Shown here one piece after another: positions 1 through 26,147 of a stretch of DNA of 64,000 nt. The stretch lies in IMG/VR virus record IMGVR_UViG_3300042448_000816, positions 1 to 64,000 of that record; one strand, written 5' to 3'. The notes beneath the pieces were generated by a model that saw only the letters and a program-made list of their open reading frames with translations, ran no database searches and had not been told where the DNA came from. The stretch is from a virus. Position numbers and translations under genes: made by a program. The first letter of the stretch is position 1, and each line of letters opens with the position of its first letter.

Positions 1-223
1 AATGGAGGGGTTCGAGACTGGCTACTGGACTCCAGAGTCATTAGACGAGTTTGCTTCCGACCTTCTTGAGGAGGCTTGACAAGTCCCCTTCGGGGGGGGG
101 CGGCCCCCTGTGGATAACCTGTGCAGATCTTTGTTATGAAGTTGTTATGAAACCCCCCGAAAATCTGCCACAAATGTCGGTAGGGTGTGATAGGGTTTTA
201 GTAATCAGATGAAAGGAAACAAA

Positions 224-1060: not shown

Positions 1061-1216
1061 TTTGACAAAGCCCCAGAAATGGGGGGCGGCATTTTATTGT
1101 AGATTTGTCAAGTGTTTTAAGAAGTGTTTTAAGATCTCCCCAAAAATTCCTCGTAGTTTTTAGTTGACAATGTCGGTGGGTAATGATAATCTTGTTTTAT
1201 CAACGAAAGGAACCCA

Positions 1217-1738: not shown

Positions 1739-1913
1739 TGACGGCCTAGTATTTTTTGTGATAGCAGTTGTGATATTTTACTTTTTTATATATCAATAAC
1801 TTGACAGATCCCTCGAAAGAGGGTGCGGCCCGTTACCTAATTGTTATAAACTATTTTATGAAGGAGTGTTTTATTCCCCCGAAATGTCGGAGGGTAATGC
1901 TAAGATGAGTAGT

Positions 1914-3009
1914 ATGTTGGGAAAGAGAAACGAAGCCAGAAGAAAAGCTGAGTCTAAAGAATTATTTAGACAGCTAATGAAGTCGCCACACCTTGTCCAA
2001 CAGTCCAAGCAACACAAGCTAACAAGAAGCGAACAGAAAAGGAAGGCAATAAATGACGGATACTAGAAGCTTTTACAGTTGCGATGACTGTGAGTATTGG
2101 TTTACCGAGAAGCCACGCTACAGCTATGACCTCAAGAATGTCTGTGGCAGATGTTATGCTATTCATGCTAACCACCCAACAACTAGAAAGGCAGCTCATG
2201 TTTGAGAATGTAATCAACGAAGAGGCTATTGAAGCCCTAACCGAAGACCAAATTGATACCCTATTGGCAATGTTTGAGAAGGCAGGATACTAATGGACGA
2301 ACAGGCAATTGAGATTAGAGAAGCTTGGGCAGAATACCTAGCTAACCCTGAAGACTATACCTTGGAAGATATTGAAGAGATATTCCAAGACCGAGACCCT
2401 TTTGAGTTTATCTAATGTTAGGACAACTAAGCGTTCACTTTTGTGAAGTGTGTTGTGAGTTTGGTATGGTGTCGGTAGTCAATGGTAAACTAATGGTTCA
2501 GTATTGTGATTGTGAAGTAGAAACAGTAGAAGGAGAATAGCAATGGGAATGATGACAGCAATGGGAATTGCCGAAACAGAAGTATCACTAGAGCAACAGA
2601 TAGCTTGGCACTTGGCAGGTAATCACTATCCACCAATTCCAAAAGCAATGGTTCCAGTTTGTATTGAAGCTATTGACGCTTATTGGGAGATGGACTATGA
2701 CAGACTAATCCAATTACCAACTGATGGACTAGACCGTAATGGAGAGCCATTCCAAATTAGATGGCGTGATGGTTCAGACAAAGCTCCAGCTCACGCAATT
2801 ATTGAACACGCTCACCTAGACGCTTGGCTAGTTGATGACTATGAAGAAGAAGAGGAAGACTAATGGCGTATCTAACTAACACTTGGTATGTTGAGTATCA
2901 AGATGGATCGATTGAGCCCGTTGCTAATCTGGCTACTGCCAGGCACTTGGTGATGTCTAATGTTGCTATTAGAATTATAGACATAAACAGGATGTTAGCA
3001 ACACACTAA
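1914..3009 (+). CDS. Chain of small ORFs (1914-2066, 2053-2205, 2198-2293, 2293-2415, 2415-2540, 2543-2863, 2863-3009)
   Basis: Translated by hand; coupled stops and starts. 2053-2205 and 2415-2540 are Cys-rich; 2543-2863 matches the ORF track. Confidence 0.6.
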
Positions 3010-3203
3010 GCAATAAACTTGACAGGTACCCCGAAAGGGGGCCGCACCACCTTTGACCCCAAAAGTCAAGTTTAAGAAGATAACGATTTTTCCCCCAAAT
3101 CGTTATAAATAAATGGTCGTAAACACTTGATAATGTCGGTGGTCTTTGCTACAATGGGGGTATCAACAAAAGTTGGTAAAAATCAAATAGAAAGAAGCAG
3201 AAA

Positions 3204-3356
3204 ATGGAAAACACTCTAACTGTTGGCTCACAGTTCACAACCGCCAAGAGCAAGGTCTCTGGCATTATTCAGGAAGTCGTAGAAAACAAGAACGGCACTT
3301 TCCGTGTTCGTCTTGATGTAGCTGGTCAGCCACGCTGGACAACTGTAATCAAGTAA
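3204..3356 (+). CDS. Small hypothetical protein (MENTLTVGSQFTTAKSKV..., 50 aa)
   Basis: Open frame directly downstream of the promoter at 3127-3155. Confidence 0.65.
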   Translation: MENTLTVGSQFTTAKSKVSGIIQEVVENKNGTFRVRLDVAGQPRWTTVIK

Positions 3357-3380
3357 TCTCCACTCCTAAAACTGACGAAA

Positions 3381-3408
3381 ACTGCTGGGTATCAGTCTAA
3401 ACTACCCA
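3381..3408 (+). ncRNA. H-type pseudoknot repeat, copy 1
   Basis: ACTG-CT-GGGTA-T-CAGT-CTAAAC-TACCC. Confidence 0.75.
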
Positions 3409-3485
3409 CCCATAAATGTCGGTGGTATCCGATACAATAAGCAAGTAAACAAATAACCCTAACAAAGAAAAGGAAGCAATAAACT

Positions 3486-3932
3486 ATGGCAAGAACGCTG
3501 TCAGTAAAAATCCCAACAAGCAAACTAATCGCAGACATAGAAGCGTCTATCGCAAAGATTGACGAAGATGTTGAGGCGTATGCTGGATTGCGTAAGCAGT
3601 ATGAGCTAGATGTCAAAAAGTATCAAGATGACCTAGTTGCTCACGCTATCAAGGCACTATCAGACCCAAGCAACATTGGAACAGAATACGGAAGTCTGGT
3701 TCGTCTTAGCACAAATCACTATCGTAATGATGTGTCTGTTGAGTTTGACCCAGAGGGACTAGGTTTCCCAAAGAAGCCAGAAGAGCCAGTCAAGCCAAAC
3801 GACAAAACTCATTTTGGTAGAGAATACATCTCTCGTAAGGAATTGCTAACTCGCAATCTCCGTATCCTGAAGATGACAACCCAAGAGGAAGTATCAGCAA
3901 GTTCTTACTCTGCTGTTATTGACCTTATCTAA
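3486..3932 (+). CDS. Hypothetical coiled-coil protein
   Basis: 148-aa ORF with SD, downstream of box promoter 3416. Confidence 0.75.
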   Translation: MARTLSVKIPTSKLIADIEASIAKIDEDVEAYAGLRKQYELDVKKYQDDLVAHAIKALSDPSNIGTEYGSLVRLSTNHYRNDVSVEFDPEGLGFPKKPEEPVKPNDKTHFGREYISRKELLTRNLRILKMTTQEEVSASSYSAVIDLI

Positions 3933-3973
3933 CTTAGGGAAATACCCCTGCCTAGCAGGTTCAACGCCCGAAG

Positions 3974-4000
3974 CAACCTGAGCAAGTTGTAAAACTGCTT
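3974..4000 (+). ncRNA. H-type pseudoknot repeat, copy 2
   Basis: CAAC-CT-GAGCA-A-GTTG-TAAAAC-TGCTT. Confidence 0.75.
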
Positions 4001-4232
4001 CCACAAGTTGGCACAAATACTGAGTCTGTAAAGACCTAAAGCTGAAGCCAACTTTTCCCTGTGAAGTGATCTGGATAGATTGCTGGTAGCAGGGAAAAAG
4101 TGGGGCGGCCCTCCAGGCCACCCACATACCATTTACGAAGTCAATTAAGAATCTCCCAAAAATTTTCCCAAATAGTATTGATAATGTCGGTGGTTAGTAG
4201 TAAAATGGAAGCAACCAAGGAAAGGAATAATC

Positions 4233-4931
4233 ATGGCGTATGATGAAATCAAAAATGTAGGATACGTGTCCTATGACGGAAACTATGGTGAGCAAGCAGA
4301 CTTGCTTATCTTTGATAGCAATTCCCTTACCCCCCAGCAATGGGAAACCCTAGGTGAGGTAAACGACAACAGCAGGTATGAATACGTTGAAGCTATCTTC
4401 AATGGCAAAGACTTATCAGAATGGGAGCAGTAATGCCTAGATACTACGTAAAGATGAGAATTGACTTTGATGGAGAGATTGAAGCAGACTCAATGCAAGA
4501 AGCAGAACAGTTAGCTTACACCTCTTGGGGAGACAGCGTGACTGATGACATATCATATGATGGTGTCTACAGCATAGACCTTGAAGAGATTGAAGATGAA
4601 GAAGAAGATGAGGACGAAGAGTAATGTCGGTAGGTCTTGGTAAAATTGAAGAAAGAAAGGAAACTATGAAAAGCTGGCAAGTAGAGTATTCTGCTACCTA
4701 TTGGGTAAACGCAGAAACCGAAGATGAGGCAATTGAGCTGGGTATGGAGAAGCATTCCGAATTACCAGACGGAGATTGGAACGCCTTTATTGACCCCTAT
4801 GATAGCAACAACTTCAATACCCTTGGAGAAAAGTAATGGAACACGAATGCTATGGATACATAGACTTATTCAACATCAGCAATAACAAGAATATCAAGTG
4901 TGCTGAATGTGGAAAAGAGTTGGGAACCTGA
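4233..4931 (+). CDS. Four small ORFs (4233-4433, 4433-4624, 4666-4836, 4836-4931)
   Basis: Coupled ORFs. 4433 and 4666 share a (V/I)xAxSxxEAxxxA-like pattern also seen at 7319 and 7688. Confidence 0.65.
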
Positions 4932-5030
4932 TGTCGGTGGGTGACCTTATAATGATAGAGTGTCCTAGGCACGAAGGCAATTTCGATTGCACACCATTCT
5001 GCAATATATGTGAAGGAGAACAGGAATACA

Positions 5031-5543
5031 ATGGGAACTAGAGGACTAACTAAAGTAATCAAGAACGACAAAGTAGTTGTAGCACAGTATGGCCAATGGG
5101 ACCACTACCCAAGTGGACAAGGTCTAACAGCCCTAAGATTTTTGAGGGATGAGACTAACGTAGAGAAGCTAGACAAAGGTCTTTACTGGCTCTATGAAAC
5201 CACTGATGAAGACGTAGAGGAGACACTTGATAGAACTGGTGATAACTTTGCAACTGCTTATCCTAGTCTTACTAGAGATACAGGTGCAGGCATTCTCGAA
5301 CTCATTGCTAATGCTAAAGGTGCCTTGCCAGTCGTCTTGAAGACTGATTTTGAAAACGATGAACTATTTTGTGAGGGTGTATTTACAGTAGACCTAGACA
5401 AGAAAAGATTCATAACAAAAACTGATTTAGGTATAACTACATTGCCACTTGATTCACTAATAAACGTTAGTGATGAAATGTATCTGGAGCAGACAAGGTG
5501 CCCAGTACATGGATATCAAAAAAATGAAACAGCTGTAGCCTAA
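5031..5543 (+). CDS. Conserved phage protein of the MGTR...YxxWDxYP type
   Basis: N-terminal MGTRG and QYGQWDHYPSG motifs. Confidence 0.7.
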   Translation: MGTRGLTKVIKNDKVVVAQYGQWDHYPSGQGLTALRFLRDETNVEKLDKGLYWLYETTDEDVEETLDRTGDNFATAYPSLTRDTGAGILELIANAKGALPVVLKTDFENDELFCEGVFTVDLDKKRFITKTDLGITTLPLDSLINVSDEMYLEQTRCPVHGYQKNETAVA

Positions 5544-5583
5544 GCATGTTGGCCTAACCTTACTTCCTTTCTGTTAGGTCAAC

Positions 5584-5611
5584 CGTCCTGGACATGACGT
5601 CAAACTGTCCA
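5584..5611 (+). ncRNA. H-type pseudoknot repeat, copy 3
   Basis: CGTC-CT-GGACA-T-GACG-TCAAAC-TGTCC. Confidence 0.75.
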
Positions 5612-5768
5612 CCGTCTGGGCCGCACCCCATCCCTGGCCAAAAGTCAAGTCCTTTACGATCTATTTACGAAGACCCCGAAAAATCTCCCGAAAAATAGTC
5701 TTGACAAATGTCAGTGGTTCGTGTGATAATAGTCTTATCAAATCAAACACTAATGAAAGGTAATACCA

Positions 5769-6782
5769 ATGGCACATTTGCTAGAATCAGTAAACGGAGA
5801 AACCGCTTTCGCTTCCCTTCGTGAGCCAGCTTGGCACGGATTGGGAACAGTCTTCACTGAGGAAGTATCCACAGCCAAAATGCTAGAGTTGGCTAAACTA
5901 AATAAATGGGACGTTCGTCTTGAAGATGTAGCAATTCCAGCAGGCTTTGAGAGTGATAAGTCTTATTCATTCGTGACTAGGACTAACCCATTTGACACAA
6001 CCAAGAATGATGTTCTTGGTGTTGTTGGTGAGCGTTATGTTCCTCTCCAGAATGAAGACCTATTTGACTTTGCCGACAACTTGCTAGACAACGGTGGTCG
6101 TTGGGAGACAGCAGGTTCAATCAAGGGTGGTCGTGTTGTCTTTGGTGCCTTGGCATTGGAGAGAGAGACCGTCATTGACCCGAATGGTGTTGGAGATAAA
6201 GTAAACACTTATCTTCTAGTAAACACTAGCCACGACGGCTCTGTTGCTATTCAGGCTAGTATTACTCCCGTTCGTGTTGTATGTGCCAACACCCTCAACC
6301 TAGCATTAGGTAATCGTGGTCGTGGTGGTTCTGTCAAGCAGTCATTCAAGATTAGACACACTCAGACAGCAAGTGGTAAAGTTCAGATTGCTCGTGAGGC
6401 ATTGGGCTTGGCTAACGCATACATTGACGAGTTTAGTCTAATGGCAAACAAGATGATTCAGACTGAGGTTAGCAAAAAGAAGTTTGATGAAATTGTTTCG
6501 GCATTGTATCCACAGCCAAAAGAAGATAGCAAGAAAGTATCAGCAACCAAGTATGCTAACAAGATTGACCTTATCAACGAAATCTATGTTGGTGATTTCA
6601 ATAACACAATTACTGGAACAGCTTGGGGTGTGGCTAACGCTCTCACCGAAAGACTAGACTGGTATCGTTCGGGTCGTAAGGGCAAGACAGAATCTATCTT
6701 GGCTTCTGCTTCTGGCTTTGACCCAATCACAAACGCAGAGAAGAACAGAATCTTCAAGGCGGTTCAGTTGGCAACAGCCTAA
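5769..6782 (+). CDS. DUF932 family (TIGR03299-like) phage/plasmid protein
   Basis: PAWHGLG, Y.PLQN, ETAGS..GG, NTSHDGS, TPVRVVCANTL, RHT and GTAWG motifs. Confidence 0.9.
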   Translation: MAHLLESVNGETAFASLREPAWHGLGTVFTEEVSTAKMLELAKLNKWDVRLEDVAIPAGFESDKSYSFVTRTNPFDTTKNDVLGVVGERYVPLQNEDLFDFADNLLDNGGRWETAGSIKGGRVVFGALALERETVIDPNGVGDKVNTYLLVNTSHDGSVAIQASITPVRVVCANTLNLALGNRGRGGSVKQSFKIRHTQTASGKVQIAREALGLANAYIDEFSLMANKMIQTEVSKKKFDEIVSALYPQPKEDSKKVSATKYANKIDLINEIYVGDFNNTITGTAWGVANALTERLDWYRSGRKGKTESILASASGFDPITNAEKNRIFKAVQLATA

Positions 6783-6789
6783 AAACAAA

Positions 6790-6816
6790 ACACCTGAGCA
6801 AGTGTCAAAACTGCTC
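6790..6816 (+). ncRNA. H-type pseudoknot repeat, copy 4
   Basis: ACAC-CT-GAGCA-A-GTGT-CAAAAC-TGCTC. Confidence 0.75.
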
Positions 6817-6939
6817 CCCAAAATGGGGTGCGGCTACTTTACATAATAAAATAATTAACAACAAAAATAACTTTAAGAAGATCCAAAATATTTTCCCGAA
6901 TTCCTTGATAATGTCGGAGGGTATCAGTATAATATACTC

Positions 6940-7332
6940 ATGAACGTAAAAATGATTGATACAGAAAAAGCAGAAATCCTTCTAGGCATGACTAAAGAAG
7001 GGCATTGGGTTGCTCCTCATGCTGTTGTAAATACCCCCAAAGGTTTAGCAACCGTATGCTATGAAGGTGTAGGTTGGTTTGAATTCGAGGGTATGTACAG
7101 TATCCTTGTTGGAGACGACTATAGAGATTGGACTAAGCTAATTACTAAAAAGGAATTACTTAGTATTATCTCTAATGAGGAGACCACTCTTCATAAAATG
7201 ATTGACCCACATAACGATAGGACTAGATCCAATCTGTTTACTTGGGAGAATCAAATCAAGAATACCCCACAAAATGTCGTAGGGTCAGACTATAATGGAA
7301 CCGAGAGAGAGGTGGCAAATGCCATTGTATAA
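6940..7332 (+). CDS. Hypothetical protein, probably leaderless
   Basis: 130-aa ORF; ATG lies 6 nt after TATAAT (6928-6933). Confidence 0.65.
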   Translation: MNVKMIDTEKAEILLGMTKEGHWVAPHAVVNTPKGLATVCYEGVGWFEFEGMYSILVGDDYRDWTKLITKKELLSIISNEETTLHKMIDPHNDRTRSNLFTWENQIKNTPQNVVGSDYNGTEREVANAIV

Positions 7333-7498
7333 AGTCCAAAGAGAATACATCAACTGGGAAGAAATTACTATAGAAGCTGATTCTAAGGAAGAAGCTTTGT
7401 CTAAAGCAGAAGATGACGAGGTTGTTTGGGAGTATTCTCATGATGTTAGTACATACTACTACACTGGAGAGATGTGGGTAGGAGAAGCAGATGAGTAA
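7319..7498 (+). CDS. Small acidic hypothetical protein
   Basis: GAGGTGG SD before the ATG at 7319; downstream of box promoter 7274. Confidence 0.65.
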   Translation: MPLYKVQREYINWEEITIEADSKEEALSKAEDDEVVWEYSHDVSTYYYTGEMWVGEADE

Positions 7499-7687
7499 GA
7501 AGCATGTTCATTACTATGCATATGGAGCATGTGCATTCTGTGGCAAGACAGTAAACAAAGGACTAGGCGTAGACCTATACAAAGGGAAGGTAGTCTAGTG
7601 GAGCTTATTATAATAATACTAACAATACTACTGGTAGCTGGTAGTCCAAACATGTTCTTTTCAAACGACAAAAGGTGGTAGGTTATA

Positions 7688-8206
7688 ATGCACGTATTGC
7701 AATGGATAGCTGTTCAGGCTGAGAACGATGACGAAGCAATGAAGTTGGTTGAGGGCAAGCTACAAGCTGAGTTAGGTAGTAATGAGTTTGCTACTAACTC
7801 TTGGTTTGATTGGTTTGTAATTGGTGGGGGTAGATTCAATCCTGACCAAGACCCATATCAATCTTCATCTAATATGATTATCTCTAGTAAAGATAGGGAT
7901 AAGTTTGATAGAACTATCGTTGATGTAATGACATCTAGAGTTGATGAGTTCAATAGCTACCGAAAATCTTTCGAGGCTAAAGACCTAGACCTAAGTGCTA
8001 AGTTAGATAGTTATACAGGTGAGATGAGATATGACTTTGAGTTGTATGAGCTGAAGAAGATGATTGACATGTATCAAGGGGAATGGGATATGAACTCCTA
8101 CTTCTTTGATATTCACCATGAGAGCACCAACGTAAATCATATGCAAAATGACCTTGACTTGAACCCCGATATGTGGTATCTTGTTCCTGTAGACTTTCAC
8201 TTTTAG
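7688..8206 (+). CDS. Hypothetical protein (WFDWFVIGGGRF...VPVDFHF type)
   Basis: 172-aa ORF with a motif pattern typical of phage proteins. Confidence 0.75.
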   Translation: MHVLQWIAVQAENDDEAMKLVEGKLQAELGSNEFATNSWFDWFVIGGGRFNPDQDPYQSSSNMIISSKDRDKFDRTIVDVMTSRVDEFNSYRKSFEAKDLDLSAKLDSYTGEMRYDFELYELKKMIDMYQGEWDMNSYFFDIHHESTNVNHMQNDLDLNPDMWYLVPVDFHF

Positions 8207-8528
8207 GGAGGAGAGACAAATGACAATGAACCAACTAATGGAGCAAATCTTGGCAATCCTGCCAAACGCTGTATTTGGAGAAGAAGACAACGGAGAAATC
8301 CTAATCGCAACAGGACTAGTTGAAGTTGATGCTGGTAGCAATCTAGTAGAGCTAGACTAATAAGATGAATATAGATACAAGATATGTAACAGGTAACCTA
8401 GCCAAAGACATACAGTTCCTAAAAGATAATCTAACTATGGAGGATGCTGATATGTTCAGAGCTCAGGTGCAGTTTATAATGTCGGTAGGTAATGATACAA
8501 TCAAACCCAACGAACAGGAGAAACCCCA

Positions 8529-8933
8529 ATGACAGTAAAACCCATTGAGATACCAGAACCCACATATACAGAATACCAAGGTTGGGACAAGTGGGCAGAG
8601 AAGTTCAAGCCTATCCACAATCACTTTAGCAATGACCCAGACCAAGATATGTTTGAGACCTATGGTGAAGAAGTAGACTATGTCACCAAGGCAGACAACA
8701 AGTATATCTGGACTTGGATACAAGGAGATATGTCTGACCTTATTGTGGCAGGGTATCACTATGTAAATAGATTAGGATACTACATTACCGAAGTTCCTTG
8801 GGACGACGAGTATGACTATGCCTTGTTATCTGTTGAGATAGAGTGTGAGTGCTATGACGAAGAGACTGGTGAAGGTAAGGACGAATGTCCTGAATGTGAA
8901 GGATATGGATTGGTGACTAAGTATGTTGACTAG
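8529..8933 (+). CDS. Hypothetical protein with C-terminal Cys cluster
   Basis: FETYGEE and GYHYVNRLGYYITE motifs; CECY...CPEC at the C-terminus. Confidence 0.75.
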   Translation: MTVKPIEIPEPTYTEYQGWDKWAEKFKPIHNHFSNDPDQDMFETYGEEVDYVTKADNKYIWTWIQGDMSDLIVAGYHYVNRLGYYITEVPWDDEYDYALLSVEIECECYDEETGEGKDECPECEGYGLVTKYVD

Positions 8934-9270
8934 AAGCAAGGCTGATAGCCTAACCCCGTACGTGTACGACCTGAATATATTTCAAAGAGAGTTGCTAGAC
9001 TCATCTGGCCAGTACAGGCATGCTGGTCCGTGGTACATTCATATCTATGAATATAACGACGGTAACGTTGAAGAGCTCAGCAACCCTATACAGCTAACCT
9101 GGGATGAGTATAATAGTCTTATTGCTAATGACCCATACTTCCAAGACCATGAGCCAGACCTATGGTATGGCCTAGAGGGGTTTATGTTTGAGAAGTGGGA
9201 TGTCATGTCAGATGGACTGAAGCTGGTATTTGAAAGTCTACCAAAGTATAAAGAAGAAGTGTTGTTTTAA
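8923..9270 (+). CDS. Hypothetical protein
   Basis: 115-aa ORF overlapping the previous gene. Confidence 0.7.
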   Translation: MLTRSKADSLTPYVYDLNIFQRELLDSSGQYRHAGPWYIHIYEYNDGNVEELSNPIQLTWDEYNSLIANDPYFQDHEPDLWYGLEGFMFEKWDVMSDGLKLVFESLPKYKEEVLF

Positions 9271-9440
9271 TAGCTTGGGAGCGATCCTACTAAAATAGCG
9301 GGAAGGTTGTGGGTAACACATACTTCACTGCACTGATGCTAGGTTAATGGGTTTTCCTAGCCAATCAGTAAATGACGGGGAGAGGGTACCAGAATTGGGT
9401 CTTGTATCCTCTCCCTGTATCTGGTATAATGAGAGGACTT

Positions 9441-9650
9441 ATGAGAAGAATACAAACTAGAGAAGAAAAGGCAGCAACTAAAATAGCAACAATCGTAAAC
9501 GACATAACATTGGATTTAGATTTTGTCGGTATTTATCTGGCAAGAACAGCACCAACAATTTCATACAATCGTTTACTACTAATAGCAGAATCAGCAGAGT
9601 TTGAGAAAGAGAGTGTAGATGTCAGAAACAGCCACAACCCCCTTTTCTAA
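9441..9650 (+). CDS. Hypothetical protein
   Basis: Start moved to 9441, downstream of TGGTATAAT (9422-9430). Confidence 0.6.
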   Translation: MRRIQTREEKAATKIATIVNDITLDLDFVGIYLARTAPTISYNRLLLIAESAEFEKESVDVRNSHNPLF

Positions 9651-9918
9651 TAGGGTTGCTATCCTAGCAGAATTATGGATAGACTTCCGAGAAGAGCCAG
9701 GGTATACAGATTTGATAGAGTATGGAGATTTGGGATTCCCACTTGCCTATGCTATTTACAACGAGATAGCCAAGCCAACAGAGCTAGCAGAAAAATACAT
9801 TGATGAGCTTTGGGACTTGCTCCTTGCTGGATTAGACCTTGAGGATTCTGGGGATTTTGAAATCCTAGGTAACTTGTTTGACGCTTCTGAAACTCGTGGA
9901 AAGTTTATTCAAGACTAG
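9619..9918 (+). CDS. Hypothetical acidic protein; last gene of the + strand block
   Basis: 99-aa ORF with DLGFPLAYAI motif. Confidence 0.7.
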   Translation: MSETATTPFSNRVAILAELWIDFREEPGYTDLIEYGDLGFPLAYAIYNEIAKPTELAEKYIDELWDLLLAGLDLEDSGDFEILGNLFDASETRGKFIQD

Positions 9919-9932
9919 CCCCCTCCTCCATC

Positions 9933-9955
9933 CTGTCCTAGCAATAGGGCAGTTT
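9933..9955 (+). terminator. Hairpin, probable terminator
   Basis: CTGTCCTA-GCAA-TAGGGCAG followed by TTT, after the last + gene. Confidence 0.55.
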
Positions 9956-10008
9956 GGGGCCGCACCATATCTTTTACCAAATGTCAAATACTATATCAAA
10001 TAATAGTA

Positions 10009-10320
10009 TTAAGAACATCCAAATATTTTTCCCAGATTTTGGGTATTACGATCTCCAAATAATATTTCCCAAATGATTGTATATCTACTTATAGGGATAT
10101 TGGTGTATCTTTTATATACCCTGGAAAAATAGGCAAATAACCAAATAGTAATTATCCTATTTTTATATACCCATTACGATCCCCAAATATAATTTCCCAG
10201 AAAAGGTACATTGTATTTGTCTATAGGTATTACGATCCCTCTTCTAAAAATCCCCGAAAGTTTTGCAGCGAAGCTGCGGCCCGAAGGGCCAGGGTATTAC
10301 GAAGATACCCAAATACCCCT
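10009..10320 (+). repeat. Direct repeats TTA(C/A)GA(T/A) followed by C- and A/T-tracts
   Basis: Copies at 10009, 10046, 10174, 10230 and 10297. Confidence 0.7.
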
Positions 10321-10595
10321 AGTATAATATACACAAATACTTCTTGGTGGATATCAGCAAATAAGGTATATGTTTTATCAAATTTGATATAAGTTATTTG
10401 ATATTTGTTAACAAAATAGATATAATATCGTATGTTTTTTATGGTGGAAACCTACAAAGAATATAACAATTTGATAACATATTTGGATATCAGGATTTGA
10501 CAATTTGATCAAAGTATGGTATAGGGGAGCCTTCCGCAAAAAAAGATTAAGAACGCCCTCTATAAATGGGCCCAATTACCCATATACAAATTGAC

Positions 10596-10669
10596 TTATC
10601 CACACATAATGATATACAAATAGGATTAGTAAGATATATTATCCACAGATGTGTATAACCTGTGCATAA
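10596..10669. promoter_or_regulatory. Cluster of four DnaA boxes (TTATNCACA)
   Basis: TTATCCACA at 10596 and 10639; TGTGTATAA at 10650; TGTGCATAA at 10661. Confidence 0.75.
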
Positions 10670-10859
10670 CTTTGGGGGTATTTAGATCAACCCAATGGGG
10701 CTATTGGGGATATGAGGATATCGGGATTTGGTTATTTACGAATAGAATTAATCAGATATGCTGCTATGAAGCAAGCTATCCCAAAGATGATTTCCATGTA
10801 TTCTTTCTATAGTGTTTGTTTATACTAGGGATTACGATGGAGCTTCTCATACCCCGAAA

Positions 10860-11308
10860 TTATTGAGCTACTGTTCCTGGAACTATAATCCTATATTCTT
10901 TACGTGATCTAGACAAAGACTTAAAGCAAGCAGAATGGACTGATATGTCTGTCCTAAGCTTCTTCTTGATATGCTTTCTTCTATAGGTCACTGTAGGCTC
11001 TTGGAGCTCTTTATTACAGTACCAGCAAGGATTACGATCCATTAGTTTTTATCCCTAAATTAGGACTTAGCCTGAGCCCTTTCGTTTCTTTGTCTAACGA
11101 TGTGGTCATACATATCTAGGTTCTCTGTAAGCTTCTTGTCTACCCAGTTTAATGCTCCATGGTTCTGAGCTAGATCAAAAATGGAGATGTCTCTGTCGTC
11201 ATACATATCCAATAGCTTTGCCATCTTCTTTTGAATGCTGTCAGCTAGAAATCCATATTCCTGATGATAGTCTGTGTTCATAACTTTCTTTTGTGCTTCT
11301 GTTGCCAT
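10860..11308 (-). CDS. Two small hypothetical ORFs (10860-11042, basic with CWYC; 11060-11308)
   Basis: ORF track; SD sites upstream. Confidence 0.55.
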
Positions 11309-11321
11309 ACCCGTTCTCTCC

Positions 11322-11789
11322 TTATTTTTCGTTATGTGTTACCCAGTAATACTGACACTTATCACAGCAAGGATTAGCCTTATCGTGAACAAAATCTATA
11401 TAGAATTCTGGGTCTTTTCTGTATAAGTTTGCCCTGTGTGATTCTGTTAGTCTATTTACTATGGATTCGTTATTGATCCAGAAGGGTTTCTTGGTACCCC
11501 AGTTTTGTACAGTGGCATTACGAAGGACCCTAATATTTTCCAGATTTTTGTCTGTCTTTATGCCTCTGGCGGAGGCTACGCCAGCCATAGAGAGGACATA
11601 CTCATACAGAGTAGTCTCTGCACCTCTCCACATCTTAACGGCTGGATGGTTCCTCCAAGCGGCTCTAGGGTCATCACTATTTAGAACCTTAAGGATCTGA
11701 TAGCCTTCTAAGATTTGCTTGTTTAGACGCTTATTGTCTAGTACCTCTGCAGACTTAGTAAAGTCTATGTAAGGTAGAAATGTTTGCAT
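11322..11789 (-). CDS. Pyrimidine-dimer DNA glycosylase / T4 endonuclease V-like protein
   Basis: True start MQTFLPY; LD.KRL.KQ.LE..QIL, W.NHPAVKMW.G and SHRANLYRKDP motifs. Confidence 0.85.
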   Translation of the reverse strand: MQTFLPYIDFTKSAEVLDNKRLNKQILEGYQILKVLNSDDPRAAWRNHPAVKMWRGAETTLYEYVLSMAGVASARGIKTDKNLENIRVLRNATVQNWGTKKPFWINNESIVNRLTESHRANLYRKDPEFYIDFVHDKANPCCDKCQYYWVTHNEK

Positions 11790-11998
11790 TAGTTTGTTTC
11801 CCAATCTTTGGCATACCCATAGCATACCCCACCAGTGGTCATGTCCCAGACAGCGATCTCTCCTGGTTCTAGATATTTGACCTGATTTGGGGTTGTAATG
11901 TGGAATAGCCACTTACCCTCTGGAACGAGATATTCTATGTCAGAATTGCTCATTCGGTTAATGTATGTATCTCTTTTAGCTGTAGCAAATTGACTCAT
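11789..11998 (-). CDS. Hypothetical protein, probably leaderless
   Basis: ATG 6 nt after TATAAT; stop overlaps the glycosylase start. Confidence 0.6.
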   Translation of the reverse strand: MSQFATAKRDTYINRMSNSDIEYLVPEGKWLFHITTPNQVKYLEPGEIAVWDMTTGGVCYGYAKDWETN

Positions 11999-12275
11999 AT
12001 ATAAATTATACTGGGGATACTAGAGAATGTCAAGCACCTTGTGCTTGTATTGATCTCTTATTTACCGCCGAACTTTACCTTCCAATAATAGATAACAAAA
12101 TTTCGTCGAACTCATCGCTTACAGCGAATGGTAGGGCTACTACAAAGATAAACAGGATAGCTACAATAAGTGCACCTATCTTAAGGCTGTCTTTAATAAT
12201 CTGATTTCTCATATTAATCTACAAACATTTCTTCTAGAATTTCAGCAATCTCTGCACCCTCTAGATCTTCGTCAG

Positions 12276-12863
12276 TTAGTCCCTCTGCGTGGAGGCTTGC
12301 CATTTTGGCCATCTTTCCATACCTTTCTTTAGCTTATCTGGATTTTCTTCAAAGAACCAATGGTCTGGCTCAACAAAATGAAAAAAGACCATGCCAACCT
12401 TTTGAGTATCTGGATTTGGATATGCCTCTCTCCAATGCTCTTGTTCCTCTCCCAGGAAAGCGAGTCCCTGGTTTGGGTATAGAGTGTAAGGCTTATCTTC
12501 TACGTAAATGTCCCAAGGCTCTGTTTGGTATAGGCACATGTCAAGTGTGTATGTACAGGCGTTAGAATCTTTATGCTTATGTAGGTTTGCATTGGGTCCC
12601 TCATAATGAGAGAACAAGGAGTAGGACAGCAAAAGAGTTTCACTGTTAAAGATCTCTCTGGCTAATGGAACTAACTTTTCCCCATACTCTTCTATTACTT
12701 TATCTGCATAAAGATGTCTTCCAAGCCCAGGATCGGCAGAAAGAAAAGTGCCAGACTCTTCATCGCCCCAGTCAGACTCCTTATTTAAATTAAACAAATG
12801 TTCATAAAGGGTGTCATAATCTTCTTTAGAGAGCAGGTTATCAATAATCTTAGGCTCAGTCAT
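12276..12863 (-). CDS. 2OG-Fe(II) oxygenase-like protein
   Basis: HxD in LHKHKD; distal His in EHWRE; VFFHFV strand. Confidence 0.75.
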   Translation of the reverse strand: MTEPKIIDNLLSKEDYDTLYEHLFNLNKESDWGDEESGTFLSADPGLGRHLYADKVIEEYGEKLVPLAREIFNSETLLLSYSLFSHYEGPNANLHKHKDSNACTYTLDMCLYQTEPWDIYVEDKPYTLYPNQGLAFLGEEQEHWREAYPNPDTQKVGMVFFHFVEPDHWFFEENPDKLKKGMERWPKWQASTQRD

Positions 12864-13098
12864 TTAAATCCTCTTGTCTAATAAGTTTGGTCAGATCGTC
12901 CCAATCTAATCTGCCCAGATTTTTATCCAATAGCTGAATAATACGTTCACGCTCTAGCTCAGCACCGTGGGACATTCCTTCTTGATAAAACCTAGCCCTA
13001 CTGCGTGTGATACGCTCAGCCCAGTCTGGCTTTTCACGGACGTTACTTTTACTTAGCTGGGTATCAAAGTAGTCGTCAACTGCATCATTATTATTCAT
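12856..13098 (-). CDS. Hypothetical protein with ERERII motif
   Basis: Start moved to MNNND, 6 nt after TACAAT. Confidence 0.6.
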   Translation of the reverse strand: MNNNDAVDDYFDTQLSKSNVREKPDWAERITRSRARFYQEGMSHGAELERERIIQLLDKNLGRLDWDDLTKLIRQEDLND

Positions 13099-13129
13099 AC
13101 CTATATTGTACAGTATGTGGGGCTTGATG

Positions 13130-13606
13130 TCAAGAGGCTGTGATGTAATCGCCAGCAATGTGGAAGTTATCTGCCGTTGTCAAAGTGGCTGGGCTATCAT
13201 GGTCAAAGGCAGCATCCCTACCGTTTGAGTCAGTATAGTTTAACAGCATTTGAGAGTTTCCAGCATAAACATGTCCACCAATAGCATACTGTCTACCAGT
13301 AGAAATATCATGGAAACAACCATTCTTAAACTGATATCCATATTTCGGGGTAAATGGAAGGTCCATGTAATACTGACCAGTTCCAAAGTTTGTAATGTTA
13401 TCCATGTCTACTTGGATTTGAAAGTGTACCAGTGGTCCATTTTTTACATAGCTACCGCTGAATAGTGGTGCTCCAGTGAAGGTTGGCTGAGTGCCAAGTG
13501 TTCCACCATTTACTGTAAAAGAAGTTTCGGTTCCTAGTGTAGCGTCTGCACCAGCAGGTCCTTGTGGGCCAGGAATACCATCTGTATGATTGGTAAACCT
13601 GGCCAT
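13130..13606 (-). CDS. Virion fibre or decoration-like protein with a short collagen-like segment
   Basis: GIPGPQGPAGAD; beta-rich C-terminus (GSYVKNGPLVHFQI, LPFTP). Confidence 0.55.
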   Translation of the reverse strand: MARFTNHTDGIPGPQGPAGADATLGTETSFTVNGGTLGTQPTFTGAPLFSGSYVKNGPLVHFQIQVDMDNITNFGTGQYYMDLPFTPKYGYQFKNGCFHDISTGRQYAIGGHVYAGNSQMLLNYTDSNGRDAAFDHDSPATLTTADNFHIAGDYITAS

Positions 13607-13887
13607 TATACGCCAGACTCAAGATTAGTTTTTAATACTGCAAGCTTGGAGCTGTTGGTATCAGTAGTAGCATAAAGATCGTCTTTTCCAGGAAGCTCAA
13701 AAGAAATAGCGTGTCCAGGTGCAATCCTGTATCCGTAGTCAGAGGATGTTACCGTAGAGCCGCCAACAAAAACATAAGCCTCATCGTCAACATTTTGAAG
13801 CGTGATGTCCATTCCTGAATGAATTCCTGGGGGAGTTAAACGGGTAGCAGAAGAGCTACTAAGTGTTAAAAAAGAGTGGGTTGTCAT
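13606..13887 (-). CDS. Small beta-rich hypothetical protein, possibly virion-associated
   Basis: LQN...VFVGG..VT...YG pattern. Confidence 0.6.
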   Translation of the reverse strand: MTTHSFLTLSSSSATRLTPPGIHSGMDITLQNVDDEAYVFVGGSTVTSSDYGYRIAPGHAISFELPGKDDLYATTDTNSSKLAVLKTNLESGV

Positions 13888-13907
13888 AGTCTTATTATAA
13901 CATTCTT

Positions 13908-14639
13908 TTAATTGTTAGTCTCTATAATACGAGTATAGACTACTTCACTATTACCGTTATCTTCTTGCCATCCACTGATAGAACGAATCTCTGTTCTGTC
14001 CCCTGGTTTTCCACCAGAGTGCAGCATCTCATCTGGTCCAACATAGATTCCAATGTGGTATGCGTTCTTCCAACCTCTATGATTAAAGGATACAAGGTCC
14101 CCAATCTTTGGTTCTGTTACGATAGTTCCAGATGTTCTTTGGGTTGTGGCACTGTGTCTAAGCTCTATTCCTAAGTGGGCGTAGGTCCATTTGACAAGTC
14201 CTGAGCAGTCCCAAGCTCTTGGGGTAGAGCCACCTAAAACCCATCTAGTTATACCAATTTGATTCTTAACTAAAACTAATGTTTCATTTAGGGTTGCAGT
14301 GTCATCAGCAATCTTTTTTAGCCTAGCAATTTCTGCCTCTAGCTCTGCCTGTGTTTGCTGGGCTTCAGACTCAAGCTGATCTCTTTCAGCTTTTTCCTGT
14401 GCCATCCAGTCATGAGACCCAACCAAAGGAGGGGCTGATTTAAAGATTGGTCCTGCAGATATCTGGGGAGTTTGAACAGGTCCAGAAATGATAACTTCTT
14501 TTTTTACCTGCGTTACTAATTGGGTTTTGCTTTCCTGAGCATTTTCATTAGCCTCTAGGATGGCACCGAAAGCTTGTCCAGTACCGATAGTCAATACTAG
14601 TGCAATTGCACTAATCGGAATTAACCTGTTTCTTTTCAT
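13908..14639 (-). CDS. Secreted NlpC/P60 peptidoglycan endopeptidase
   Basis: Signal peptide, coiled coil, WDCSGLVKW, IGDLV.F and HIGIYVG..MLHS motifs. Confidence 0.9.
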   Translation of the reverse strand: MKRNRLIPISAIALVLTIGTGQAFGAILEANENAQESKTQLVTQVKKEVIISGPVQTPQISAGPIFKSAPPLVGSHDWMAQEKAERDQLESEAQQTQAELEAEIARLKKIADDTATLNETLVLVKNQIGITRWVLGGSTPRAWDCSGLVKWTYAHLGIELRHSATTQRTSGTIVTEPKIGDLVSFNHRGWKNAYHIGIYVGPDEMLHSGGKPGDRTEIRSISGWQEDNGNSEVVYTRIIETNN

Positions 14640-14791
14640 TTAGCGACCTACCTTTCCTTGGTAGTTAGTACTCGGTCGTTGAGTGTTAGTGGGGGGTTCC
14701 CCTATTAAGTTATAAACCTCTATGTCTGGTATTTATTACAAACAAAAAGGTACTACTATTTTACCATAAATTATAATAATAAAACTATTAT

Positions 14792-15284
14792 CTATCTTTT
14801 TACTCTTTTAGGCTTTTTTGAATTAAGCTTCTTTAGCCAAGGCTTGTCTGCATACTTAGCCCATTCGTATACAAAGATACACAAAGCGATAAGAAACCCT
14901 AGGGATCCAGACTGTACGATGTAGTATGGTGTTGGGTCAATTAGGTAGGTGTCCCATGGGAATGTGTAGGCCACTACTGGCAAAGCAATAGCATTACCGA
15001 ATACTGCAGATATTACGATACTCTTGTAGATGTTCTTCAATTGTTCTCCTATTATTGTTCAGCCTATATTATAGTGCATTAGGCAGGGTAATGTCAAATC
15101 ATTCTTCTGACAGGTATTTCATAAATACCCTTAATATCTCAACGGTGTACTTCTCATACTCAATTTCAATCAGGGTATTCTCTTGATCTACCCTATGTAT
15201 CTTAATCTCTTTACCAAGATTAAATAAGATATTGTTTATCTCTTTTTCTAAGTCCACACTAAAGTATAGCAGATTAATAAACAT
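14792..15284 (-). CDS. Two small ORFs (14792-15040, membrane protein; 15099-15284)
   Basis: ORF track; two hydrophobic helices in the first. Confidence 0.5.
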
Positions 15285-15414
15285 TGGTAGAATTGATTAT
15301 GCTCTATAAATGTGTTTGCGGAAAGATCCATGTTCTGGCATTAGATCTTTATTTTGATATCATTAAGCATAAAGAGTATTGCTATTGTGATATTATAGAG
15401 GCTTCTAAGGAAGA

Positions 15415-15443
15415 TTGACATACCGCCATTTTTTTGGTATCAT
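15415..15443 (+). promoter_or_regulatory. SigA-type promoter TTGACA-N17-TATCAT
   Basis: Exact spacing; ATG 6 nt downstream at 15450. Confidence 0.75.
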
Positions 15444-15449
15444 TTGTTC

Positions 15450-15638
15450 ATGAGTAAATTTGAAAGACAAGAAAAGCGAAAGCTGGATAGGCAGACTAAG
15501 GCTGTTATTAAGAAGGCTAAGCAAGATATGCAGACTTACATAGAAACCCTTGGAGAGCTTCCCTCGGAAGCAGAGGTAAGGGCCTGGCAGGCTGGATATA
15601 TTTCTGGTATCAATCGAATGGCTGAGGACTACCTTTGA
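15450..15638 (+). CDS. Small hypothetical protein
   Basis: Leaderless start; AWQAGYISG motif. Confidence 0.65.
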   Translation: MSKFERQEKRKLDRQTKAVIKKAKQDMQTYIETLGELPSEAEVRAWQAGYISGINRMAEDYL

Positions 15639-16036
15639 ATTTTCAGGCAGAGTCTAGGCGTTCTGGCGATGAGTTTGAGTCTAAGGTACTGATAGACCTA
15701 TCTAGATTTGGAACAACCAACATAACTAAGAATGTTATCGTAGAGGATACTGGCTGTGAGGTTGATTTTGCTTATGACAATAGAGGAACTCAGGTTTATG
15801 TTGAAGCTAAGGGTGGTTTGCAGGGGGAGAAGAAGCGTCCTGGAGCTAAGAGAACAGACAACGTAAAGAAAGCTATAGCCAACGCAGCTTTGATTAAATC
15901 TTTAAACCCAGACACCCAGTATATCGTTTACTTCTCAGACTTACCCAAGTACGGATCATCTTCTCATAAGATGCTGAAAGCAGCAATTAGAGCTGGCTTT
16001 ATTGATAATGTTCGATACTTAATCGACATGAAGTAA
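15635..16036 (+). CDS. PD-(D/E)xK restriction-endonuclease-like nuclease
   Basis: G.EFE, EVDF, YVEAKG and RTDNVKKAI motifs. Confidence 0.7.
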   Translation: MNFQAESRRSGDEFESKVLIDLSRFGTTNITKNVIVEDTGCEVDFAYDNRGTQVYVEAKGGLQGEKKRPGAKRTDNVKKAIANAALIKSLNPDTQYIVYFSDLPKYGSSSHKMLKAAIRAGFIDNVRYLIDMK

Positions 16037-16038
16037 AA

Positions 16039-17199
16039 CTAAATTAGTCTTGTTACTGAGGTATAATCTTTACCAAAGTCAGAGAATAAGGCTTTATCTG
16101 CTTCTCTTTGTGCAATTCTGCGAGACCAAGAGAATCCTGCATCTCCACCCCACGCTAGCCACATAATATATCCGTTAGATGGGTTAGCCTGGTTTCCCCA
16201 GTCCTTGCCCTTCTTGTCTACCTCGTGGCGAGAGAAGTAAGAGTACATACGCTTAACAGTGCTTAGCGAGAGTGTCTCTCCATTAGCCAGTTGTCTAGCT
16301 CTTGTCCATCCAACTGCAGTTCCTGCTCCTGTAGCTTTGCCGTCTTCCTTGAACTTGATAGCCCTACGAGCAGCAGCCCTAGCCCCAGCAGGAGGAGAGT
16401 AGCCTTCAGCTTTGTCCATGTATTCATCGTAATCATCGTCCTCTTCATAATCTTCTAAACTAATATTTGGCATGTTAATTCTTTCAACGTCTGACATTAA
16501 TGCACCAATTGAATATGGTGTGTAGTAGTAGACTCCATCGTCTTCTTCTAGAATTCTAATAGCTACCGCTGGATTTTCTGGAGTAGACTCAACGGAGTAA
16601 GGGTTTTCTGGCTCACCATATCTACCACCTTCACGCATGACGTGCTCTACCTGACCAACAACCATGCCCTCTGTAGTCCTTGCACTTACAAAGTCCCCCT
16701 CAGTAATTCTTGCTTCGGCTTTAGATACTGGAATACAGTTAGGAACCATGCGTCCGTTGTCTCCTGGCTTCATTCCCCTTTGGGTGTATCCGTCCCAACA
16801 AGGAGCAACCTTTTCATCTGCTTTAGTTCCCATGGATGTTCCGCCATTTGTAGTTGAGATTGCACCAGTAGAATCTCCACCAGCACCGCCAACCCTAGTC
16901 TTTGGTTTTTTCTTAGGATCTTTTAGTGCAGAAGGTTTCTTTGATGCTGGTTCTGGCTGTCCAATGGCAGACCCCATGCCATCTTTGTCTGTTGCTGCTT
17001 TTATAGCAGTTCCTGGCCACTCTTCTGGATTTTTAATACCAACGCCAGCTTCAATGTTTCCTTCAGACTGGTTGATTGCATAAATTTGATTGGCAGCTTC
17101 TTCAGCTGTTGTGTGGCAACCCATTACGGTTCCATCGTCTTTAAGGGCAGGGTAGCCTGAGCAACCGTAAGATCCTTTTTCTCCAACATGATATGGCAT
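16039..17199 (-). CDS. Multi-domain phage protein, possibly head-associated
   Basis: CWDGY..VPNC module; C-terminal GT.VGW.RARQLA...TVKRMYSYFSRHE...WGGDAG domain common in tailed phages. Confidence 0.6.
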   Translation of the reverse strand: MPYHVGEKGSYGCSGYPALKDDGTVMGCHTTAEEAANQIYAINQSEGNIEAGVGIKNPEEWPGTAIKAATDKDGMGSAIGQPEPASKKPSALKDPKKKPKTRVGGAGGDSTGAISTTNGGTSMGTKADEKVAPCWDGYTQRGMKPGDNGRMVPNCIPVSKAEARITEGDFVSARTTEGMVVGQVEHVMREGGRYGEPENPYSVESTPENPAVAIRILEEDDGVYYYTPYSIGALMSDVERINMPNISLEDYEEDDDYDEYMDKAEGYSPPAGARAAARRAIKFKEDGKATGAGTAVGWTRARQLANGETLSLSTVKRMYSYFSRHEVDKKGKDWGNQANPSNGYIMWLAWGGDAGFSWSRRIAQREADKALFSDFGKDYTSVTRLI

Positions 17200-17226
17200 A
17201 TAAACATTATACCACAGGTATTGTTA

Positions 17227-17254
17227 TAGGCCTTTTAGCAACATGCCTAGGTTG
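17227..17254 (-). ncRNA. H-type pseudoknot repeat, copy 5 (3' of Hsp20)
   Basis: Minus strand CAAC-CT-AGGCA-T-GTTG-CTAAAA-GGCCT-A, with one mismatch in stem 2. Confidence 0.65.
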
Positions 17255-17310: not shown

Positions 17311-17709
17311 TTAGCGGATCTTAATTGATTTTGGTTTTTTCTCTTCTGGAATGTTTCTTACCAGATGAACATACAGAATACCGTCCTCAAATCCAGCCGA
17401 ATCTACTTCATAGTATTCAGGTAGTGAGAATGAGCGAGTAAACTTCCGAGCAGCAATACCTTTATGTAGGTATTTCTTATCGTCAGCATCTGGCTTTTCT
17501 GCTTTTATAGATAGGACATTTTTTTCAGTAGTAATACTGATATCATCCTTCTTGAATCCAGCTACTGCAAACTCCATTACGATCTTGTCGTCGTTAATCC
17601 TGACAACGTTATATGGTGGATAGGTGTTTGCTGCTGGGGTAGTGCTAAAGAATTTGTCAATATCTAGACCAAATCCTGAAAATGGTGTTGTAATAACCAT
17701 GTATATCAT
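17311..17709 (-). CDS. Small heat-shock protein (Hsp20/IbpA-like)
   Basis: YPPYNV, AVAGF, YLHKGIAARKFTRSF and DGIL motifs. Confidence 0.93.
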   Translation of the reverse strand: MIYMVITTPFSGFGLDIDKFFSTTPAANTYPPYNVVRINDDKIVMEFAVAGFKKDDISITTEKNVLSIKAEKPDADDKKYLHKGIAARKFTRSFSLPEYYEVDSAGFEDGILYVHLVRNIPEEKKPKSIKIR

Positions 17710-26074: not shown

Positions 26075-26147
26075 AGCCTCCAACAGGACTTGAACCCGTC
26101 ACCTACGCATTACAAGTGCGTCGCTCTACCAGATGAGCTATAGAGGC
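26075..26147 (-). tRNA. tRNA-Thr(UGU)
   Basis: Cloverleaf; anticodon arm ACGCA-CTTGTAA-TGCGT; TTCAAGT T-loop; CCA not encoded. Confidence 0.92.

Follow-up and report, generated by a model that had tools for sequence, protein, structure and literature searches.

The described RNAs closest to the element reported here are coremin and the frameshift pseudoknots of luteoviruses and poleroviruses. Coremin, GUCCGAAGACGUUAAACUAC, comprises a 4-bp hairpin with the loop YGAD or YGNNAD, a spacer and an obligatory second hairpin, and it stalls Xrn1 as well as scanning ribosomes and promotes -1 frameshifting (PMC10520033, PMC10321173). Known as xrRNA-C (xrRNA, exoribonuclease-resistant RNA), and together with its Watson-Crick variant xrRNA-WCC, it is present in beny-, cucumo- and other eukaryotic RNA viruses (PMC10520033, PMC10321173, PMC6546385). 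We report an RNA element that is classed as a compact pseudoknot of the coremin- and luteovirus-like type and that is present in double-stranded DNA (dsDNA) phages and in bacteria. Five copies are found in the window, i.e. positions 1 to 64,000 (the first 64 kb) of the 112,370-bp IMG/VR phage record IMGVR_UViG_3300042448_000816. We tentatively propose that the element could be the first prokaryotic roadblock RNA, a 27-nt triplex pseudoknot akin to the coremin xrRNA in sequence and fold, which would be a portable module that stops processive RNA-degrading enzymes (or ribosomes) and defines stable ends, used by phages and mobile elements across bacterial phyla.

A preliminary description of the window, drawn up from the letters alone, had claimed five such elements in one register, and direct reading as well as a strict descriptor place all five at the claimed sites (Table 1). 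The register common to them is P1(4)-CT-P2(5)-W-P1'(4)-NNAAA[AC]-P2'(5), i.e. a 4-bp P1, the 2-nt loop CU, a 5-bp P2, a 1-nt junction and the 6-nt loop NNAAAC, in all 27 nt, and the spacing between the copies is 0.6-10 kb. There are four P1 sequences (ACTG, CAAC twice, CGTC and ACAC) and four P2 sequences (GGGTA, GAGCA twice, GGACA and AGGCA), with one G-U pair in the copy at 3974 and one mismatch (A-G) in the copy at 17254, again as had been described. The scan of shuffled sequence that had been called for gave far fewer matches than the real sequence: the strict descriptor has 5 matches in the window vs 0.23 +/- 0.42, with a maximum of 1, in 30 dinucleotide-preserving shuffles. It found zero further copies in the remaining 48 kb of the genome, and relaxed descriptors run over the whole genome gave no additional ones. 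All five copies lie on the strand of their flanking genes, at gaps of 7 to 56 nt after a stop codon (the claim had been less than about 60 nt), and each is upstream of a promoter-like site. The sense orientation extends to 69 related loci, gathered through the DUF932 protein encoded upstream of copy 4, where the strict descriptor has 134 matches on the gene-sense strand vs 9 on the antisense strand.

When 95 distinct copies are aligned, double changes are seen at eight of the nine pairs. This count was not relied on because the alignment was picked by pairing, and two descriptor-independent tests of the stems were run instead. For P1, IMG/VR was searched with a pattern in which P2 and the loops were fixed and three P1 pairs were left free; at least 119 stretches matched and 94 matches were scored. 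Among the matches listed, P1 was fully paired (4/4) in 74 of 94 and paired at three of four positions in 20, against a chance level of ~5%, and more than 25 different P1 sequences were seen. For P2, a pattern with one P1 and the loops fixed and four P2 pairs free gave 104 unique IMG/VR matches; the four free pairs were all formed in 73 of these (2% expected by chance), and 31 kinds of P2 sequence were seen. The compensatory changes reported earlier for both stems are thus borne out by the P1-free and P2-free scans, and the element is an RNA-level H-type pseudoknot with sequence-constrained loops. In the alignment of 95 copies C5, U6, A11 and A19-21 are without variation, the spacer NNAAAC-U is near-invariant and the junction (loop 2) is a single A or U. 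The 3' flank reads A (~60%), C (45-70%) and then C, with G depleted, and this A-C-C flank is kept only in part outside the clade of the window phage. Judging from the analogy with knots of the beet western yellows virus (BWYV) type, the geometry permits a compact triplex, in which the loop C would lie in the major groove of P2 and the loop adenines in the minor groove of P1.

The element is widespread. At least one sense-strand copy is present in 56 of the 69 related loci, and in about 50 of 67 relatives it occupies the site of copy 4, behind the DUF932 gene. It is carried by more than 200 other IMG/VR contigs (29-59% G+C, 2-260 kb) and by the cultured freshwater cyanophage S-CRM01, which has at least five copies (at 129623, 130825, 136421, 149416 and 149524) in its transfer RNA (tRNA) region. 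In bacterial genomes and metagenome-assembled genomes (MAGs) at least 119 stretches were matched by the P1-free pattern; among the matches listed, P1 is paired in 115 of 121 bacterial-genome cases, the phyla are Saccharibacteria, Omnitrophota, Planctomycetota, Desulfobacterota, Firmicutes, Bacteroidota, Actinomycetota, Chloroflexota, Cyanobacteria and Proteobacteria, and a few archaeal MAGs also match. The closest cultured relative by the DUF932 gene is the Streptomyces cluster BE phage Jay2Jay, where the element is absent from the corresponding region, and megablast of the region around the copies against cultured phages gave no match. At the gathering score of Rfam 15 the window matches only four tRNAs and nothing at the element, while a permissive scan (E up to 10) of positions 3300-7000 gave chance-level matches to unrelated families only, in keeping with the earlier statement that the element belongs to no named Rfam family. 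It was not found described in the searchable literature (concept and sequence-string searches; subscription journals lie outside this coverage), and the 2023 survey of structured RNAs in phages and the 224-motif paper do not visibly describe it.

The position of the element relative to the RNA upstream of it follows a narrow pattern. In 325 of 343 cases the 150 nt before the knot contain the end of an open reading frame (ORF) of 50 codons or more. In unique contexts the gap between stop codon and knot has its mode at 5 nt (n=57), with 40 contexts at 6 nt, 16 at 7 nt, 11 at 8 nt and 20 at 9 nt, and it is almost never smaller; when ORFs of at least 60 codons are considered, 299 end 5 nt or more before the knot, three end nearer and seven end inside it, and the antisense control of ORF-end positions is flat. 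At the DUF932 site the knot lies 5-7 nt past the stop codon despite a spacer of ~150 nt to the next gene, and therefore compaction alone does not explain the closeness. The upstream genes form at least 87 similarity clusters, among which DUF932 is the commonest (74 loci), and others are an unknown 169-aa protein (52 loci), Hsp20 (10 loci, genes of unrelated phages) and ribonucleotide reductase (3 loci). This number of families points to a generic role at the RNA level, and no protein family was found to co-occur with the element. In S-CRM01 three copies lie between neighbouring tRNAs, with 2-4 nt separating the knot from the tRNA before it and 3-6 nt from the tRNA after it. What the contexts have in common is a knot immediately 3' of one functional RNA unit and ahead of the following one.

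What follows the knot is more varied. A tRNA gene starts 2-13 nt past it in 28 cases. Complete type III hammerhead cores begin at +1 and cleave at +6 or +7 in loci L090, L205, L228 and L231, one of which is confirmed by Rfam (L231 7541-7595), and hammerheads after the knot number six against ~1 expected. In four loci (L095 257-445, L271 5404-5592, L308 and L214) the 5' end of the DUF2800 RNA motif (RF02960) lies 1-2 nt past the knot. A T-tract follows directly after 10-14% of the copies, the ribosome-binding site of the next gene is at most 70 nt downstream in about 30%, and ~40% form an unclassified downstream group. In L026, L030 and L072 a canonical intrinsic terminator replaces the knot at the DUF932 site. 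Calls of the knot as the last feature before a convergent gene were not used, since spurious ORFs on the strand opposite tRNAs and sense genes made such calls unreliable. Two observations concern the tRNA regions themselves. An apparently unannotated tRNA-like gene with a long variable arm lies at 149330-149413 of the S-CRM01 record (L317 39331-39414), between tRNA-Arg and the pseudoknot that precedes tRNA-Met. The window has a cluster of four tRNA genes (Table 1), and in the window phage none of these has a pseudoknot in front.

We consider it possible, and favour it while stopping short of calling it probable, that the element is a mechanically robust cap guarding the 3' end of the upstream RNA; the protective role is what we infer from these contexts. 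The knot would be transcribed as part of the message of the upstream gene, and the transcript would be cut or ended just downstream, by RNase P at a following tRNA, by a hammerhead ribozyme or an endonuclease, or else by termination, which would place the knot a few bases from the new 3' end. There it would block 3'-to-5' exoribonucleases such as PNPase, RNase II or RNase R, and the upstream coding region or tRNA precursor would thereby survive. The reading comes from the fact that the knot stays with the upstream fragment whether the event is an RNase P cut, a hammerhead cleavage or termination. The tRNA, hammerhead and T-tract neighbours often create an RNA 3' end, ordinary terminators hold the same site in some relatives, and the S-CRM01 knots are just 3' of tRNAs, again a functional RNA. 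The minimum gap of 5 nt is consistent with a structure that has to escape unwinding by a ribosome arriving at the stop codon; the ribosomal helicase acts ~11 nt from the first base of the P site. Moreover, small pseudoknots (evopreQ1) placed on 3' ends stabilise engineered guide RNAs (PMC9456398). In the terms of this explanation, the five copies would close five early transcription units in the window phage.

Several points weigh against a 3'-end cap. No T-tract, tRNA, ribozyme or canonical terminator is present downstream of the five window copies, and about one third of all copies have only the ribosome-binding site of the next gene downstream, with no visible 3'-end former. Coremin, the closest RNA by sequence, blocks a 5'-to-3' exonuclease, i.e. 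the opposite direction. In addition, the S-CRM01 knot between two tRNAs would be freed on both sides, which the cap model explains weakly, and it is not evident that a knot of 9 bp would hold up an enzyme better than a plain hairpin does. The nuclease-blocking end of a messenger RNA (mRNA), one of the roles offered in the preliminary description, stands as the role that suits the context best by its post-stop placement and the 3'-end formers downstream, but it lacks such a neighbour at the copies for which it was offered.

A serious alternative, although we judge it unlikely, is a block in the opposite direction: a prokaryotic counterpart of coremin would stall a 5'-to-3' exoribonuclease (e.g. 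RNase J) that arrives from the upstream gene and shield a downstream cistron, tRNA, small RNA or 3'-untranslated region (UTR) fragment. The element closely matches the experimentally defined features of coremin (PMC10520033, PMC10321173), and structured RNAs (tRNAs, hammerheads and the DUF2800 RNA) often begin 0-13 nt downstream of it. The likely hosts, actinobacteria and cyanobacteria, have RNase J, which also speaks for such a block. However, the second hairpin (hp2) that coremin requires shows no enrichment behind the phage knot: of 537 copies, 14% have a hairpin beginning at +0 to +3, vs 10-16% at control offsets, and in the clade of the window phage the figure for the hp2 position is 26%. 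Furthermore, a cut by RNase P or a hammerhead parts the knot from the downstream RNA, which it could therefore not protect later, and in the window each knot is separated from the following gene by a promoter, so that the main downstream transcripts would lack the knot. Ordinary frameshift pseudoknots, moreover, fail to stall Xrn1.

Quite improbable, in our view, is a ribosome-directed device situated at the mRNA entrance when the stop codon is in the A site, where it would modulate termination, halt post-termination ribosomes or insulate the folding of what lies downstream. The sharp minimum and the mode at 5-6 nt past the stop match the distance at which recoding pseudoknots stand. Knots of the coremin type arrest scanning ribosomes and cause -1 frameshifting (E. 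coli-based screen), and there is a class of bacterial copies in which a tiny ORF ends inside the knot. Yet 35-40% of the copies are separated from the stop codon by over 12 nt, in many cases with another hairpin in between, and the S-CRM01 knots follow tRNAs, where there is no ribosome. The upstream sequences printed contain no slippery heptamer, the frame past the stop of the DUF932 gene in the window closes within five codons, and the stop codons before the knot are mostly the strong UAA (116 of 165).

The tiny ORF is an observation in its own right. In about 30 loci of bacterial MAGs (including L204, L212, L220-L222, L234, L241, L249, L256, L258, L279, L299 and L309) a conserved ORF of ~22-27 codons ends within the pseudoknot, at UGA (positions 12-14) or UAA (positions 18-20). 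Its consensus is M-x-ITIKYMLRPVAHCKEGC-xxx-SWA with 3-periodic conservation, and it is often followed by a gene beginning MKLITRD, which we take to be Rrf2-like. The tiny ORF and the knot may form a leader-peptide switch built on the same knot. The idea that the conserved sequence before some bacterial copies is part of a larger RNA was rejected, this sequence being the tiny coding ORF.

Two further alternatives appear very unlikely, both to the same degree. The first, a transcription terminator or pause element in which the knot, in place of an intrinsic-terminator hairpin or together with a factor, would end the early units, is the termination or antitermination signal of the preliminary description. 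In its favour, the window copies lie at the ends of transcription units, before promoters, 10-14% of the copies elsewhere have the T-tract directly after them and some relatives have canonical terminators at the same site. On the other hand, most copies, and all five in the window, are without a T-tract, and many lie between tightly spaced co-transcribed genes or before tRNAs that need to be transcribed. According to the second, the knot would be bound by a conserved protein or by a small ligand, or would serve RNase P as a tRNA-like substrate and so punctuate polycistronic RNA, with U6 as position -1, G7:C27 as the first acceptor pair and A-C-C as the discriminator plus CC. Invariant unpaired bases (C5, U6, A11 and A19-21) are typical of specific recognition, the spread over phyla suits a universal partner, and the A, C, C order of the G-depleted 3' flank agrees with the RNase P version, for which it also counts that E. 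coli RNase P cleaves the pseudoknotted acceptor arm of turnip yellow mosaic virus RNA. Against this version, the A-C-C flank is only partly conserved outside the clade of the window phage, and a second site 2-6 nt before a tRNA, or cleavage right before a hammerhead, would be redundant. As for a ligand, the 1-nt junction offers no obvious pocket of the preQ1-I type and the element stands after genes rather than in 5' leaders; as for a protein, no co-occurring family was found.

We give practically no weight to the remaining suggestion, a type III antitoxin (ToxI-like) decoy neutralising a host ToxN, AbiQ or CptN toxin, which had been put forward for a small phage-borne pseudoknot with an A-rich loop: the likeness is one of geometry only, the copies are single and dispersed with no tandem array at or near any of the five (Tandem Repeats Finder), no such toxin family is found among the eight flanking proteins (PADLOC, PHROGs; an adjacent toxin gene is not required of a decoy), the strict placement after stops has no role in the model, and the same element with identical, invariant loops recurs behind at least 87 upstream families, in phages of hosts from many phyla and in bacterial genomes, a spread not to be expected of a decoy for one toxin family.

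Table 1. Copies of the pseudoknot and neighbouring features in the window (positions 1 to 64,000 of the record)
Feature	Position	Strand	Sequence or product	Context
Copy 1	3381..3407	+	ACTG CT GGGTA T CAGT CTAAAC TACCC	24 nt past stop of ORF 3204-3356; abuts promoter box at 3417
Copy 2	3974..4000	+	CAAC CT GAGCA A GTTG TAAAAC TGCTT	G-U at outer P2 pair; 41 nt past stop of ORF 3486-3932
Surroundings of copy 2	3947-3959; 4005-4125	+	small hairpin; structured RNA	hairpin between stop and knot; structured RNA downstream
Copy 3	5584..5610	+	CGTC CT GGACA T GACG TCAAAC TGTCC	40 nt past stop of ORF 5010-5543; abuts 11-bp hairpin 5548-5583
Hairpin before copy 3	5548..5583	+	11 bp, 14-nt loop CUUACUUCCUUUCU	-12.9 kcal/mol, z -4.1
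Copy 4	6790..6816	+	ACAC CT GAGCA A GTGT CAAAAC TGCTC	7 nt past stop of DUF932 gene 5769-6782
Gene upstream of copy 4	5769..6782	+	DUF932 protein, phrog_1221	
Copy 5	17228..17254	-	CAAC CT AGGCA T GTTG CTAAAA GGCCT	A-G mismatch at inner P2 pair; 56 nt past stop of Hsp20 gene 17311-17709
Surroundings of copy 5		-	hairpin; TATAAT box and ORF 16039-17199	hairpin between Hsp20 stop and knot; box and ORF downstream
Gene upstream of copy 5	17311..17709	-	Hsp20	
First structured RNA after copy 2	4005-4054	+	8-bp stem, large internal loop, capped stem	
Two strong hairpins	4057-4125	+	-34.3 kcal/mol, z -3.3	after the first structured RNA
tRNA cluster	26075-27238	-	four tRNA genes	

In three of the five window copies (copies 2, 3 and 5) an extra hairpin stands between the stop codon and the knot. 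The loop CUUACUUCCUUUCU of the hairpin before copy 3 shows complementarity to GAAAGGA, the Shine-Dalgarno sequence of the phage itself, and similarity to the 16S rRNA 3' end; in relatives the loop UCCUUUCU is kept directly before the CGTC-type pseudoknot. The first structured RNA after copy 2 has a large internal loop, formed by the strands ACAAAUACUG and AAAGCUGAAG, together with a short stem that ends in a GNRA tetraloop, and it has no Rfam match. In relatives (loci L009, L019 and L028) the two conserved loop strands are in swapped 5'/3' order, as in permuted small ribozymes. The second of the two strong hairpins that follow it is intrinsic-terminator-like when read on the minus strand.

Other observations concern the promoters, the host and the genome ends. 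We found 21 promoter-like sites in window positions 175-8501 and record positions 110940-112370, consisting of TGTC-R-G, a 10-nt spacer and TAnnnT, often after TTGAYA, and most of them are followed by the Shine-Dalgarno sequence GAAAGGA. This motif resembles what we take to be the consensus of the actinobacterial PafBC/RecA-NDp motif, of which the concept, as distinct from the consensus, is confirmed in papers. Together with the DUF932 relatives in Streptomyces phages, the PafBC-like motif points to an actinobacterial host, and this is what we suggest for the window phage. In all of the early intergenic regions each related genome (the window and L009-L077) repeats its own short G+C-rich box (e.g. 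GGCGGCC, GGCGCACC, GCCCGAGGGC and GGGGTACCCC; sites in the window are e.g. 4103-4120, 5618-5625 and 6828-6834), which is followed by TTTACGAA or TTAAGAA boxes that precede the promoters; we take this as a hint of concerted evolution acting on a site particular to each genome. At its right end (112326-112370) the record repeats window positions 175-219 of the left end, and the "linear" record is therefore a circular or permuted assembly. In the relative IMGVR_UViG_3300043438_002264 the DUF932 region is present at each end, suggesting a long terminal repeat.

The conservation of so small an RNA, with its loop bases unchanged, reaches from actinophages and cyanophages to the genomes of Saccharibacteria, Omnitrophota, Firmicutes and Planctomycetota, and its placement behind stop codons is precise to the single nucleotide. 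Such RNAs have usually proved to have a precise biochemical job. If the element does block exonucleases or ribosomes, it would be a general and portable means of setting how stable mRNAs and tRNA precursors are in phage gene expression, a prokaryotic counterpart to the viral xrRNAs, and a ready-made 27-nt part for RNA stabilisation in synthetic biology. Should the roadblock be related to coremin, one solution to exonuclease resistance would be shared, or have been invented twice, by phages and eukaryotic viruses. The element is also a new landmark by which gene callers could recognise gene and transcript ends in phage genomes, and since S-CRM01 is cultured, direct tests are possible.

Among the known systems that resemble the element, ToxI is likewise a small pseudoknotted RNA tied to phage biology, but it consists of tandem 36-nt repeats beside a toxin gene and is cut by the toxin, whereas the phage-knot copies are single and dispersed. 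The preQ1-I aptamer, and evopreQ1, share the minimal H-type fold with an A-rich third loop; the phage knot differs by a 1-nt junction without the ligand-pairing C and by its position after genes instead of in a 5' leader, and it has no match to preQ1-I (RF00522) in Rfam at E up to 10. Stabiliser hairpins, i.e. repetitive extragenic palindromic (REP) elements, the 3' hairpins processed by RNase III in T7 and terminator stems, are alike in their gene-end or intercistronic position and in the proposed role as a barrier against 3'-to-5' exonucleases. They are, however, lineage-specific simple hairpins, whereas the phage element is a sequence-constrained knot with invariant loop bases kept across phyla.

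The -1 frameshift knots of luteoviruses and poleroviruses (BWYV, pea enation mosaic virus 1 and sugarcane yellow leaf virus) are nearly the same in size (~28 nt) and geometry: the first loop has 2 nt and begins with C, the junction is 1 nt long, and an A-rich loop of 6-7 nt can line the minor groove of stem 1. A distance of 5-9 nt from the A-site codon is typical of them and of the phage knot alike. In contrast, the phage element lies after stops or tRNAs and not within a coding overlap, its stems are 4+5 bp vs 5+3 bp, and when it was tested as a -1 frameshift knot, the upstream sequences printed contained no X XXY YYZ slippery heptamer, nor was a reading frame found to overlap.

Coremin is the closest of these systems by sequence; the 2024 xrRNA crystal structure represents a different class and is uninformative on the coremin fold. 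The phage knot differs from coremin by its 8-nt loop C-U-G-R-N-Y-A-W (4-6 nt in coremin), with an extra U before the G, and by a canonical, covarying second stem of 5 bp, which takes up five of the loop bases. Furthermore, it is found in dsDNA phages and bacteria, which lack Xrn1, and the direction of protection is possibly the opposite one. Several features are alike. The first hairpin has 4 bp, is often GUC/GAC and is closed by C:G in 87% of the phage-knot copies, and the loop of the phage knot has a pyrimidine as its first base (100%, C), A as the penultimate base (100%) and a base other than C as the last (96%). In both RNAs a spacer with AAAC-U (UUAAAC UAC in coremin) pairs with the loop, a pairing that in the phage knot is backed by covariation and that in xrRNA-WCC comprises three Watson-Crick pairs. 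Both are usually located just past a coding region, in the 3' UTR, and up to 11 consecutive bases (GACGUUAAACU) are identical between them.

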